Sequence record: OZ346212.1
DNA: 64,000 bases
Strand: one strand, 5' to 3'
Origin: a phage
The stretch's first letter is position 1; each line of letters begins with the position of its first letter. A program made the position numbers and the translations under genes. Positions 44,584 through 53,936 of the stretch are shown piece after piece. Under the pieces are notes generated by a model. That model saw only the letters and a list, made by a program, of their open reading frames with translations. It was not told the DNA's origin and searched no databases.

Positions 44584-44773
44584 GCTTAAATCTGCATGGA
44601 ACATCGCTGTGGGGGACGAGATCCGTATCCCAGGTGGAAAGACCATTATGAAAATATCTCGTATCGAGTACGAAGGTGATCGTGTATTTCATATCTTTGC
44701 AGAAGATGGTCGAGAGATTTATATACAGGTAGGATCTCACATCTATATTCGTAAGAAAGGGGAGGACAAATGA
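44576..44773 (+). CDS. hypothetical small protein (65 aa)
   Basis: ATG 44576 with SD AAGGAAGG; track start 44510 lies deep inside upstream gene. Confidence 0.5.
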   Translation: MFKLKSAWNIAVGDEIRIPGGKTIMKISRIEYEGDRVFHIFAEDGREIYIQVGSHIYIRKKGEDK

Positions 44774-45099
44774 CAGAGATCATCATTTCAACTGCAGGGT
44801 ATGTATTCCTGACAATCATTGCACTGGCTATTTTGGTGACAGTGTATGGGTTTGTTATCCTTCCTATCCTTGAGACATTTAGTTTGTGTCGGTGTTGGAG
44901 AAAAGCTTACGGTCCACAACCATGGAAGGACTGGCCCCACCTGGTGCGCTTAGCGTTCTCTTATGCTTACGATCACTCCAGTAGTGCATGCATAACCGGA
45001 TACCACGCCCACAACTGGAGCTGGGAAGGGTTGAGGAAATGGAATGTTACAAAGACCATACCTCTGCGCATGTACAAACCTAAAAACAAAGACAACTGA
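44770..45099 (+). CDS. hypothetical membrane protein (109 aa)
   Basis: SD GGGGAGG; N-terminal hydrophobic helix IISTAGYVFLTIIALAILVTVYGFVILPIL. Confidence 0.6.
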   Translation: MTEIIISTAGYVFLTIIALAILVTVYGFVILPILETFSLCRCWRKAYGPQPWKDWPHLVRLAFSYAYDHSSSACITGYHAHNWSWEGLRKWNVTKTIPLRMYKPKNKDN

Positions 45100-45129
45100 T
45101 ACTTGAAAATTCCTGGCATATCAAGTATA

Positions 45130-45600
45130 AGGGGGATTTCTAAAATGGATTTCCTCCTTTTGATATTTCACCGGGCTGGATATTTTAAAATTCTTAGAAA
45201 ATCAGAAAATGGATCGAAAACTAAAATGGATTTTTCAGAGTAGGCGCGACAAGCTGAATAACTCATCCTATCGTTTGCACCATATTCCAGGCCACCATTA
45301 TAGATTTCCCACACATGCTAACCTCTCCCTACTAGAACTTCCTCCACTTACCCTTGACCTTCTATGGTAACAATCTAACCGCTATCTTGAAGTTGCGGTG
45401 CAGCTTTCCAGGTACTCGATCTACTTTTCATTTCAGGGCTTGGATTTTCTGAAAATTTTTCTCGATAAATTTCTCAGTACTCGATCTGTTTTTCGTTTTC
45501 TGAATCGGATTTTCTGGAAATCGTTCCGGCTCTCAACCTGAAATTTTTGGGGACGAAATCGATTTTTCGTTTTCAGAAATGGATTTTTAAAATTTCTATA
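45130..45600. repeat. AT-rich noncoding region with iteron-like short direct repeats
   Basis: AAATGGAT(T/C) x4, GTACTCGATCT x2, GGATTTTCTG x2, TTTCGTTTTC x2; no credible ORF. Confidence 0.6.
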
Positions 45601-45648
45601 TGGGAATATTTTAGTGGATACTGTTTTATAGGAAATTGTTACGGAGGG

Positions 45649-45666
45649 TAATTAGCATGCTAATTA
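45649..45666. promoter_or_regulatory. 18-bp perfect palindrome TAATTAGCATGCTAATTA (candidate protein-binding site)
   Basis: Perfectly self-complementary 18-mer in noncoding DNA. Confidence 0.5.
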
Positions 45667-45689
45667 AATTTATTAAATGCGAGGAGTTC

Positions 45690-45960
45690 TCATTTAGAAT
45701 TTTGAATGATAATCATTCTCGTTTGCAGAATAACGGGCAGGCCCGGTGATTGTCTCCCGGCCCCTGTTGCCCCGGCTTGTTATTATAGTATCACACAGGA
45801 CAAAGAAAGCAAGGACTTTTTGCATAAATTTTTAAATGATAATGATAACCGTTCTCATTTTATGCAGCGCCCATCCCCGGTGGTTGTCTCCCCCGTCACC
45901 GGTGCCTGCCGTCCTTTCGATATGTATATTGTGCCACCTGGCGGGGCCGCTGTCAACACT
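45690..45960. repeat. two tandem structured noncoding repeats with Fur-box-like head (ATGATAAT...) and conserved core CCCGGTG(A/G)TTGTCTCCC
   Basis: Copy 1 about 45692..45790, copy 2 about 45838..45960; track ORF 45706..46062 spans them but looks noncoding. Confidence 0.5.
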
Positions 45961-46120
45961 TTTCAAAAAATTTTTCTAACCTGGTGCGCTAACCGTTGCA
46001 ACCTGGCGGGGCCAGCCTGGCAGGACCTAACTGACCAGGTAGGGGAGAATGAAGGCTTGTAAACCTGGTGGGCCTATGCTACAGGATAGGTAACAATTGA
46101 AGAGGAGGTACAAAAATGAT

Positions 46121-46231
46121 ATGATCCCCCTGGAAAATGTAGCTATTAATGACTCTGAGGCTATCGCCCTGGTTGAAAAGGCTATGGCGGGAGCGTTGGA
46201 ACATAAAGAAGAGTACGAAAATGGTGGTTAA
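46121..46231 (+). CDS. hypothetical small protein (36 aa), not in ORF track
   Basis: ATG preceded by strong SD GAGGAGG at 46102; ends in TAA inside motif GGTTAACCTGGCGGGG. Confidence 0.4.
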   Translation: MIPLENVAINDSEAIALVEKAMAGALEHKEEYENGG

Positions 46232-46283
46232 CCTGGCGGGGGCGGCAGGTGGATTCTATCATAAAAATAATTTAAAATAGTAG

Positions 46284-46311
46284 TTGACAACAAGGTTAAT
46301 CATGGTATTAT
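46284..46311 (+). promoter_or_regulatory. sigma70-like promoter (TTGACA-N16-TATTAT)
   Basis: Hexamers at 46284 and 46306. Confidence 0.6.
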
Positions 46312-52698: not shown

Positions 52699-52944
52699 AT
52701 GAAAAGCAATAAAGGTTATAACGGTTACAAAAACAAAACTCATTGGAATGTAAGCCTTTGGATTAATAACGATGAGTCATTGTACCGGTTGGCCCAAGGA
52801 TTTATTAACGCTAATGCTAATCGTAATGATGCGGCGCGGGATATGATGCTTTTTCTGGAGCTAACCGGACAAGATAAGACCCCGGACGGCTTCAAGTACA
52901 GCACTACGGCGATCCGTGCCGCGATGGTTGGAATGAAACACTAA
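52699..52944 (+). CDS. hypothetical small protein (81 aa)
   Basis: SD AAGAAGAGG upstream; last + strand gene before convergent intergenic region. Confidence 0.6.
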   Translation: MKSNKGYNGYKNKTHWNVSLWINNDESLYRLAQGFINANANRNDAARDMMLFLELTGQDKTPDGFKYSTTAIRAAMVGMKH

Positions 52945-53259
52945 AAGCACATAGCCGCCAGATCTCAGAATTTACGTACGCTCACCAGTCTATAGCCTGC
53001 TAAGTATTTATTCCAACCATAGAATAACGGAATAGTCAATACCTGCATAAAATAATTATTCGTGTAAACTGCATAACATAAATCGGCTAGGATGTCAACA
53101 TTTTTCGTAAACAGCTCGAAATTATAACGGTGAGTTATAATAAACAGAGAAATCTTTAGTCGTCTAATGTTTACTGTACATTACTATACTGACTGGAATC
53201 ATTAGATGACTAAGAGAAAGATAAGAAATCATTAACAATGCAATTGTTTTATTCGTAAC

Positions 53260-53560
53260 AATAAGGCAACTATGCAAACGGATGGCATGGCGCGACGGAG
53301 TCGCGACATAATATAAAAGCAGTAACCATCACCCCCGTGATAGTTTGTCTGCAAACTATTAATCAGATCATAGTTGCCTTGTATTTAGTTAATCATGACA
53401 TAACAAGCAAGGCAACTATAGATCTGCTAATAGTTGCCCTGCTTTTATATTATGTCATAGATTATTAGCCTGTTAATTGTTAGTCAGTCAAATCAACAAC
53501 GTTATCATTTCAGTCTTTATTGTTGTTGATCGTTATTGTTATCATGCAAACGAATGGCAT
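53260..53560. repeat. repeat cluster in convergent intergenic region
   Basis: AAGGCAACTAT in forward (53262, 53411) and inverted (53372, 53432) orientation; hairpin TAGTTTG-tctg-CAAACTA; direct repeat TGCAAACG(G/A)ATGGCATGGC at 53273 and 53541. Confidence 0.6.
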
Positions 53561-53936
53561 GGCTTATCATTTTTGAGTAAACAATCTATACGTGAACAGT
53601 GAGGCAAGTTAGCAGCCGATAGATTAGATATTAACCTGCAGACTTCTGACCGTCTAGACGTCTAAACGCCCACACAACAAGGATTATACATACAATACTG
53701 AATGTAAACAGGGCCGCAAAAATGCTACCATACCACAGATTGTAAATTTTTCATGCAGCACTTGACAAAGAGGAGAACTTAATTTTATCAGGATAGGCAA
53801 GAATGTCAAGGCATGACTGCTCACTAAACAAGCAAACAGTCATGTGTGGGAGGTAAGTGATTGTGGTGGTAGGAAATTTAGTTGAAAGATGTGTTATAGG
53901 TGCTTCCAGCACTTTAGCCGGGCAGCTAATTGTGTG

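Follow-up and report, generated by a model that had tools for sequence, protein, structure and literature searches.

A conserved noncoding element of rV5-like phages with long direct repeats, Fur-operator-like palindromes and predicted reversed promoters

Introduction

Transcription-activated replication origins of phages, among them the primary origin of T7, oriF and oriG of T4 and the origin of lactococcal phage c2, place promoters ahead of a noncoding AT-rich stretch, and in T7 such promoter-plus-AT-rich origins are used by a machinery of the family A polymerase and gp4 type. Iteron origins (lambda ori, P1 oriR, SPP1 oriL) have direct repeats beside AT-rich DNA, and the operators of the Escherichia coli ferric uptake regulator (Fur) are palindromic boxes of 19 bp (GATAATGATAATCATTATC, or TGATAATNATTATCA in the 7-1-7 form). 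Here we describe a gene-free gap of about 1 kb (45100–46096) in the genome of a virulent Vequintavirus (rV5-like phage; sequence record OZ346212.1), of which a stretch of 64,000 nucleotides, referred to here as the window, was analysed. The gap is conserved, lacks coding content, is not a genome end, and contains long direct repeats, palindromes matching the Fur box and predicted promoters that point left. On the strength of its sequence, Fur binding, the existence and extent of leftward transcripts, and origin activity are proposed for it.

Like the T7, T4 and c2 origins, the gap has tandem predicted promoters running into a noncoding AT-rich stretch, and the replication proteins are related to those of T7: a DnaB-like helicase domain is encoded in the window, and, according to the rV5 genome paper, phages of this group have a primase-helicase of the T7 gp4 type and a family A polymerase. 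Unlike those origins, it has promoters of the kind read by the host sigma70 polymerase, and three long repeats and the Fur boxes are placed between promoter and AT-rich DNA. The phage boxes are, like those of E. coli, palindromic and 19 bp long, and they share with strong natural Fur operators a tandem arrangement with in-phase hexamer extensions. Unlike E. coli operators, the putative phage boxes belong to a virulent phage, lie downstream of the promoters and not over the -35 and -10 elements, are arrayed at a constant period of 29 bp and prefer G at position 4 of the heptamer.

An origin of the transcription-activated kind, gated by Fur, is the single most likely function of the gap by analogy with these systems, and is put forward tentatively; purely transcriptional control is nearly as likely. 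The origin is proposed because of the reversed early-type promoters, their noncoding target, the presence of the most AT-rich DNA and the three conserved repeats of a size suited to protein binding.

A gene-free gap under selection

The region is 95–99% identical to many Vequintavirus coliphages, the nearest relative being EdH4 (98.6% identity over 44700–46300). A preliminary description of this DNA had flagged about 470 bp without a credible open reading frame (ORF). Only ORFs of at most 53 amino acids overlap that block, which is indeed noncoding, but the gap is about twice as long as described. The neighbouring genes are all on the + strand; the last one upstream stops at 45099, and the next credible gene is to the right of promoters at 46097 and 46284. 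Small ORFs within the gap conflict or are missing across eight annotators of near-identical genomes, differing in frame, strand and number (two in EdH4, three in MaxTheCat and six in NHEP1), and the small 'hypothetical protein' ORFs that many GenBank records carry here are most likely spurious.

Conservation was profiled in an alignment of eight Vequintavirus genomes that are 86–99% identical overall. Identity is about 0.8 in the flanking genes, 0.94–0.98 in a block of short repeats (45180–45239), 0.92–0.99 in the long repeats (45450–45599) and 0.91–1.0 in the part with the Fur boxes and promoters (45690–46019); a spacer at 45240–45419 is the least conserved part of the gap (0.60–0.77). Noncoding DNA whose conservation exceeds that of the adjacent genes is under selection, and a role of the gap as a functional cis-acting noncoding element is strongly supported by this and by its conservation in other genera. 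A map in the rV5 genome paper (2013) has a box labelled 'non-coding', taken to be this gap, which appears to have been noticed at that time but not analysed.

The features on which the argument turns are, from left to right:

45402–45600, unstranded: long direct repeats, with R1 from 45402, R2 from 45467 and R3 from 45541 (spacings of 65 and 74)
45676–45732, unstranded: Fur-operator-like array 1, with boxes at 45676–45694 and 45705–45723, 29 bp apart, followed by an in-phase GCAGAAT hexamer
45733–45778, - strand: GC-rich conserved segment with GGTGATTGTCTCC, putative 5' leader of the P1 transcript (from the alignment)
45785–45812, - strand: predicted sigma70 promoter P1, TTGCTT-16-TACTAT with an extended -10 TG (read from the sequence; below the threshold of the scanning tool in the window)
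45835–45859, unstranded: Fur-operator-like array 2, GATAATGATAACCGTTCTC, a consensus match scoring 26.2 bits with the weight matrix described below and 0.97 conserved
45862–45921, - strand: second copy of the GC-rich leader (CCCGGTGGTTGTCTCCC), found by the repeat finder, with a predicted hairpin (z -1.73)
45928–45977, - strand: predicted early-type promoter P2, TTGACA-17-CACAAT with TG and an upstream A/T element (scan score 10/12; -35 to -10 at 45956–45928; 1.0 conserved)

Long repeats in the most AT-rich DNA

The short direct repeats reported earlier are all found where they had been placed, and their clustering is far above chance. AAATGGATY has four copies in the whole 64-kb window, all within 45143–45585. 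Exact copies of GTACTCGATCT are at 45412 and 45477, copies of GGATTTTCTG at 45442 and 45507 (0.17 expected) and copies of TTTCGTTTTC at 45491 and 45565, with one more outside the block (0.23 expected); each of these three motifs is thus present twice in the block, against 0.2–0.6 copies expected per whole window. The repeat finder shows the motif pairs to be fragments of three direct repeats, R1–R3, with about 47–57 aligned nucleotides each. The order of parts in a unit is (G)TACTCGATCT, TTTTTCGTTTTC, GGATTTTCTG and an A/T tract. As RNA or single-stranded DNA, R1–R3 fold no better than shuffled sequences.

The AT-rich character ascribed to the block is borne out. At a scale of 200–300 nt, no part of the window has a lower GC content than 45421–45730 (0.295–0.317, against a window mean of 0.435), and this minimum sits directly downstream of P2 and P1. 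No significant helical (10.5-bp) phasing of the T tracts, as a sign of intrinsic curvature, was found.

Fur-operator-like palindromes

Within array 1, TTGAATGATAATCATTCTC at 45702 departs from the 19-mer Fur consensus at 4 positions, 16 consecutive nucleotides (ATAATCATTCTCGTTT) are shared with the E. coli fhuA operator, and the segment 45690–45719 is 100% conserved among the eight genomes of the genus. The GATAATGATAACCGTTCTC palindrome of array 2, at 45838, has 3 mismatches and is the sole match at 3 or fewer in the 64 kb, where 0.06 would be expected. With E. coli K-12 operators as a positive control (fepD–entS, 3 mismatches; entC, 4; fhuA, 5; fepA–fes, 6), the phage boxes, at 3 and 4, match the consensus as well as authentic operators do, at 3–6.

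A position weight matrix built from 28 phage boxes (consensus AATGAGAATCATTCTCATT) scores the two boxes of array 1 at 18.4 and 25.5 bits. In 20 kb of the E. coli ent locus, all four matches of the same matrix are in the known Fur-regulated intergenic regions (three regions), and the fhuA operator is recovered by it as well. Spacing within arrays is 29 bp at 8 of 10 loci. When the window and the rest of the EdH4 genome were scanned (about 143 kb; cut-off 14 bits), boxes of at least 14 bits were located only in the gap (45676, 45705 and 45841) and in the EdH4 terminal repeat (positions 10, 126 and 144), the first of the latter being 10 nt from the physical end. Klebsiella phage KPP-1 has Fur-like boxes in and beside its terminal repeat (locus L006, 2395–3160).

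Rather than overlapping the -35 and -10 elements, the boxes are placed from about +50 onwards with respect to P1 and P2; their position in some genera is about -45 to -75 from P0, a further leftward promoter. In a sensitive blastn search, just the piece at about 45670–45813 was matched in other genera. All the hosts belong to the Enterobacterales, in which Fur and its box are conserved, and this agrees with the unusual conservation of the box piece alone across genera. The binder of the boxes may instead be a phage protein of Fur-like specificity.

A Fur-controlled small RNA on the + strand was considered and rejected for this phage: the candidate promoter over the boxes, TTGAAT-18-CAGAAT, scores just 8/12, is missing from copy 2 and has a -35 that Phapecoctavirus does not retain (alignment inspected by eye). 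In other genera a terminator-like double hairpin is seen on the + strand further right.

Predicted leftward promoters and GC-rich leaders

P1 is a weak consensus match in this phage; its -35 and -10 are kept on the minus strand in all 11 aligned sequences, and P1-homologous sites are found by the promoter scan in PVP-SE1 and KB57. The -35 and upstream A/T element of P2 match those of the phage's ordinary early promoters, with reversed orientation. In PVP-SE1 and KB57 one more leftward promoter, P0, is called immediately to the left of the boxes, giving these phages three tandem minus-strand promoters at homologous sites, and no + strand promoter is called in their gaps. As judged by eye from the alignment, a + strand promoter over the boxes is weak and lacks conservation. 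As predicted from sequence, the gap is an island of reversed promoters inside the early region.

Between promoter and boxes is the GC-rich leader, in which GAGACAAnCACCG is near-invariant across 11 sequences. The unit of Fur box, GC-rich leader and promoter is duplicated in the window, the copies being 134–136 bp apart. The segment 45733–45778 forms a hairpin in single-sequence folds, and neither a consensus structure nor covariation was found for it; for the P1 leader and Fur region, the consensus fold of the minus strand, at -4.9 kcal/mol, is negligible. No Rfam match at E up to 1 was obtained in the gap or its homologues, the single match in the loci of five relatives (E 0.78, far below gathering) being about 2 kb away. 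A structured RNA gene was rejected: there is no Rfam match, the consensus fold is negligible, covariation is not consistent, and the repeats fold like shuffled sequences.

A third copy of the GC-rich leader is present at EdH4 2205–2295, with 23 nt identical to 45736–45758 and without Fur boxes. It is downstream of a promoter-like site (identified by eye), and upstream of and co-oriented with an ordinary early gene. The leader may be part of a reusable early-promoter module.

One layout in several genera

The gap was compared with loci of Seunavirus (PVP-SE1, EC152), Mydovirus (KB57), Certrevirus (POP15, PBES02) and Henunavirus (Hena1), and of the Phapecoctavirus phages anhysbys, phiWec179 and ZCKP1. 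A common layout, in sequence that is mostly unalignable, was found in six Vequintavirinae genera (Vequintavirus, Seunavirus, Mydovirus, Certrevirus of Pectobacterium and Cronobacter, Henunavirus). From left to right, it consists of short GAAATGG-type repeats, a variable spacer, three direct repeats, one to five palindromic Fur-like boxes, a GC-rich element and leftward promoters. The triple repeat is present in five other Vequintavirinae genera with a spacing of 52–78 bp; EC152 has two complete copies and a third truncated by the start of the record. Parts of the long repeats that recur across genera are a near-palindromic core (GGTTCTCGATCG...), TTTTTCAAAAT, CGTATTTTTTCT and GAAAAAATTTTT. In Phapecoctavirus the boxes and promoter are kept and the AT-rich repeats differ, with two full copies and a shorter three-copy family. 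Counting this genus, the arrangement occupies the same locus in seven genera.

Several further observations were made at these loci. In genera other than Vequintavirus, a highly conserved block of about 110 nt, missing from the window, is present between P1 and P2 (locus L007, 1640–1735; L005, 2675–2770; homologues in L003, L004 and L008–L011). On the + strand it reads as two hairpins followed by a U-rich tail; compensatory changes are few, the G–U pairs are workable on the + strand only, and it has no Rfam match. This block may act as a terminator, or form the 3' end of a small RNA.

At the right edge of the element, Seunavirus and Mydovirus have one minus-strand gene, which encodes a DUF7170 protein of 60–63 amino acids (L007, 1794–1976; L005, 2827–3012; L004, 572–763; all on the - strand) and has a promoter-like site upstream (by eye). 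Phapecoctavirus has an unrelated minus-strand ORF of 88 amino acids at this position, and Vequintavirus has no gene there. Raoultella phage Ro1 (MG250486 / NC_048682, 19001–20541) has a split copy of the element, the two pieces being separated by about 0.7 kb, and the annotation places an HNH endonuclease gene under the match; in PVP-SE1, too, an HNH gene is found just upstream. Insertion of homing endonucleases is apparently tolerated, or attracted, by the control region.

Two database labels are likely to be mislabelling or carry-over: PLSDB entry CP057073.1 (137,565 bp), filed as an E. coli plasmid, is as large as a Vequintavirus genome and includes the element (93.5% identity), and about 16–19 GenBank records of the MG0656xx series, named 'Campylobacter phage', are near-identical to E. 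coli Vequintaviruses.

Other features of the gap

Surrounding the repeats, boxes and leftward promoters are the following:

45096–45131, - strand: inverted repeat with 11-nt arms and a 14-nt loop (repeat finder), overlapping the stop codon of the last + strand gene
45137–45235, unstranded: short direct-repeat block, with AAATGGAT(T/C) at 45143, 45207 and 45224 (repeat finder)
45240–45400, + strand: variable spacer, C-rich and G-poor on this strand (composition and alignment)
45649–45666, unstranded: perfect 18-bp palindrome TAATTAGCATGCTAATTA, between the long repeats and the Fur boxes (repeat finder)
46097–46311, + strand: first rightward early promoters, at 46097–46125 and 46284–46311 (promoter scan), where coding resumes

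Read on the minus strand, the inverted repeat is followed by UUGUCUUUGUUUUU, and it is tentatively a possible weak terminator for leftward transcripts. It forms a hairpin in the predicted fold, but the energy of the region is no better than that of shuffled sequences (z +0.61). The short repeats contain AAATGGATTT and lie within a pair of longer repeats spaced 81 bp apart; similar GAAATGGTTTT repeats are in the same place in PVP-SE1, KB57 and EC152. Within the spacer, 45261–45380 has a + strand content of 0.35 for C and 0.07–0.09 for G, and ranks within the highest 1% of the window by C minus G. This bias was found in Vequintavirus only and not in the other genera, as was the 18-bp palindrome.

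Proposed origin or iron-responsive control

At the proposed origin, host RNA polymerase would start at P2 and P1, which point left, unlike the neighbouring promoters. The transcripts would cross the GC-rich leader and then the Fur-like palindrome array, and would end up in the AT-rich noncoding stretch with its three 65–74-bp repeats. Transcription would open or prime this repeat block, which is probably loaded with a sequence-specific protein, and iron-bound Fur on the boxes would gate how much transcription passes. As in known origins of the transcription-activated kind, predicted promoters (P2 and P1, on the minus strand) are directed into noncoding AT-rich repeats. Pfam matches in the window include the C-terminal domain of a DnaB-like helicase, a PIF1 helicase and a weak, sub-threshold family A polymerase; by analogy, these replication genes would be loosely compatible with a T7-like origin. 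The phage has annotated ribonucleotide reductases, enzymes that require iron, and iron gating would have a rationale in that the phage's own ribonucleotide reductases need iron.

Several observations weigh against an origin at this place. There is no switch of GC skew at the block, although transcription runs in the same direction on both sides, and the skew analysis in the rV5 paper showed no origin. Neither a consensus DnaA box nor an IHF site is found in 45100–46100, where GATC is not enriched (3 per kb, with a mean of 4.8 per kb for the window); GATC enrichment is confined to the repeats of some other genera. No identifiable initiator gene adjoins the block, the neighbouring small ORFs having no Pfam match. 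The C-rich template at 45261–45380, which would yield a G-rich leftward RNA and favour R-loops, is a feature of Vequintavirus only. Fur boxes some 50 nt or more past the start site are an unusual geometry for a repressor, and P1 and P2 could, from the EdH4 leader copy, be relics of a leftward gene cassette. A second repeat-rich noncoding block, at 52945–53936, is an alternative candidate for the origin. An element resembling oriC was rejected, the gap having none of the features of one (DnaA boxes, IHF consensus sites, GATC enrichment, a GC-skew switch).

The closest competitor, possible though doubtful on its own, is an iron-responsive transcriptional control region without an origin, in which Fur would gate leftward noncoding transcription from P2 and P1 (and P0 elsewhere). 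Such transcription would run into the rightward early transcription or be antisense to it, and the long repeats would be binding sites for phage or host regulators or a termination zone. Consistent with such a region are the Fur-box match with its positive control and the leftward orientation of the promoters, where nearly all other strong predicted promoters point right. The same box also stands beside promoter-like sites (by eye) in the EdH4 terminal repeats and in or next to that of KPP-1, which suggests a small Fur regulon of early promoters. The untranslated + strand at 45261–45380, C-rich and G-poor, resembles a Rho loading site for rightward transcripts; as a core feature of the element, Rho loading at this spacer was rejected, being real in Vequintavirus but not conserved elsewhere. 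Control alone leaves unexplained why exactly three repeats of 65–75 bp are kept in all Vequintavirinae genera examined. Moreover, no conserved RNA structure or Rfam family was found in the element, and this phage has no conserved minus-strand target gene.

Less likely readings: DNA entry, initiator-bound repeats and packaging

Phage T5 offers a further parallel. Its first-step-transfer DNA ends at a conserved, repeat-rich noncoding region of 1.6 kb with host DnaA boxes. Like this injection stop signal (repeat region 3 of the left terminal repeat), the gap is a large, conserved, untranslated repeat region about 8% from a genome end, is better conserved than the neighbouring small genes and has sites for a host protein, which are DnaA boxes in T5, with a role that is itself hypothetical, and putative Fur boxes here. 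Unlike it, the gap shares no sequence with T5, whose region is inside a 10-kb terminal repeat. By this analogy the gap would be a pause or anchoring site for entering DNA, a repeat-rich untranslated region with host-protein binding sites that marks the inner edge of a terminal block of early genes, a reading we regard as improbable. The element is 11.0–12.2 kb from the left physical end of EdH4, or about 8–9% of the genome, a fraction similar to the 7.9% of the T5 first-step-transfer DNA; the genes in between are small, and Fur-like boxes are present only at the two borders of this segment, the terminal repeat and the element. Two-step injection is, however, not known from this phage group, the terminal repeat is 0.46 kb rather than 10 kb, and other genera are reported to be circularly permuted, with no fixed end. 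Early-type promoters are just as frequent in the far flank, and the element is thus no divide between early and later genes. The preliminary description had likewise seen a border here, between replication genes and a hyperplastic region, and that does not hold, both flanks being small-gene regions dense in + strand sigma70-like promoters. A border of early and middle genes was rejected on the same grounds, strong + strand promoters being equally dense on the two sides. A link to the pseudo-ToxI repeats of phage phiTE was rejected as well, those repeats being at a different intergenic locus with a 36-nt unit.

Somewhat less probable still is the classic iteron origin that had been suggested for the block, in which a phage initiator binds direct repeats and melts adjacent AT-rich DNA. 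As in lambda ori, P1 oriR and SPP1 oriL, direct repeats are found with AT-rich DNA, here in the most AT-rich stretch of the window; the repeats are strongly conserved, and a near-palindromic core in each unit (CTCGATCGAG in other genera) suits a dimeric DNA-binding protein. Unlike those origins, the gap has three units of 65–74 bp, where iterons are of 17–22 bp and in helical phase (the phasing of the T tracts here is not significant), has no DnaA or IHF sites, GATC enrichment or skew switch, and is neither enclosed nor adjoined by a recognisable initiator gene, the ORFs nearby having no Pfam match or, in other genera, only DUF7170. The iteron-type origin in the form first described is therefore not upheld.

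The genome ends of relatives bear on the other function suggested for the block, terminase recognition. Korf et al. report terminal redundancies of 458 bp for EdH4, and in the EdH4 record positions 1–459 are repeated at 135573–136031 (459-bp direct terminal repeats). These ends map to the second noncoding block, at about 53.5–53.8 kb of the window and some 8 kb to the right of the element, and KPP-1 has a 514-bp terminal repeat 8.5 kb from the homologous element; the terminal-repeat DNA of KPP-1 has no similarity to the window. The large terminase gene of EdH4 (90.4–92.0 kb) is far from its element (11–12 kb). Other relatives are reported to be circularly permuted or headful packagers.

Recognition of the gap in packaging, as a pac or terminase site, is very improbable: it could draw on the repeat-rich noncoding DNA, on the headful packaging reported for some relatives, whose pac site is not known, and on the EC152 record, which starts inside the repeats, but the terminal repeats of EdH4 and KPP-1 are about 8–8.5 kb away, the end of the EC152 record is contiguous with its start without terminal duplication, the terminase genes are distant, and no satellite or plasmid has a copy. 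The GATC-containing repeat cores of several genera have a likeness to the P1 pac site, which counts for packaging. Mimicry by a satellite or plasmid was rejected; no copies were found in E. coli genomes, and the single match in the plasmid database is a whole Vequintavirus genome.

The second noncoding block, 52945–53936, is large and lies at the convergent junction between + strand genes (ending at 52944) and - strand genes (from 53937). Among its repeats, CAAGGCAACTAT / ATAGTTGCC(T/C)TG has four copies, in both orientations, and ATGCAAACGRATGGCATGGC has two; the block also contains a perfect inverted repeat of 18 nt. Because the physical ends of EdH4 map there, this block is likely to be the terminus and packaging region. 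Comparison of its terminal region, 53458–53777, with EdH4 1–656 and 134784–136031 shows that about 0.3 kb stands here in place of about 1.7 kb in EdH4, and a 171-nt piece of the EdH4 terminal repeat (282–450) is inverted at 53607–53777. This difference could be a real rearrangement or an assembly collapse at the terminal repeat.

Discussion

Both Fur operators and promoter-plus-AT-rich origins are of known kinds; what is new is to see the two together with a conserved triple repeat in virulent phages, and boxes that are confined to the element and the genome ends. Full-text searches found no paper pairing 'Fur box' with Vequintavirus or lytic-phage terms, and the ferric uptake regulator was mentioned in none of the papers on these phages that a broader search listed.

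Phages of the rV5 type are among the commonest coliphage isolates and are used in typing, biocontrol and therapy. To our knowledge, neither their replication origin nor their early regulation has been described, and the gap is a concrete, conserved and experimentally tractable candidate for both. The Fur boxes are its less expected part. If Fur does bind them, host iron status, a dominant variable in the gut, would be tied to the infection programme of a strictly lytic phage, and this would bear on how well rV5-like phages work at iron-limited infection sites.

A broader proposition, which we consider unlikely but worth stating, is that virulent rV5-like phages have recruited Fur, in a structural or regulatory capacity, at both the terminal repeat and the internal control region, bracketing the terminal 8–9% of the genome. 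Were that so, iron status would gate an early step at the level of DNA, be it origin firing, genome entry or the pairing of ends, and would do more than tune a gene.

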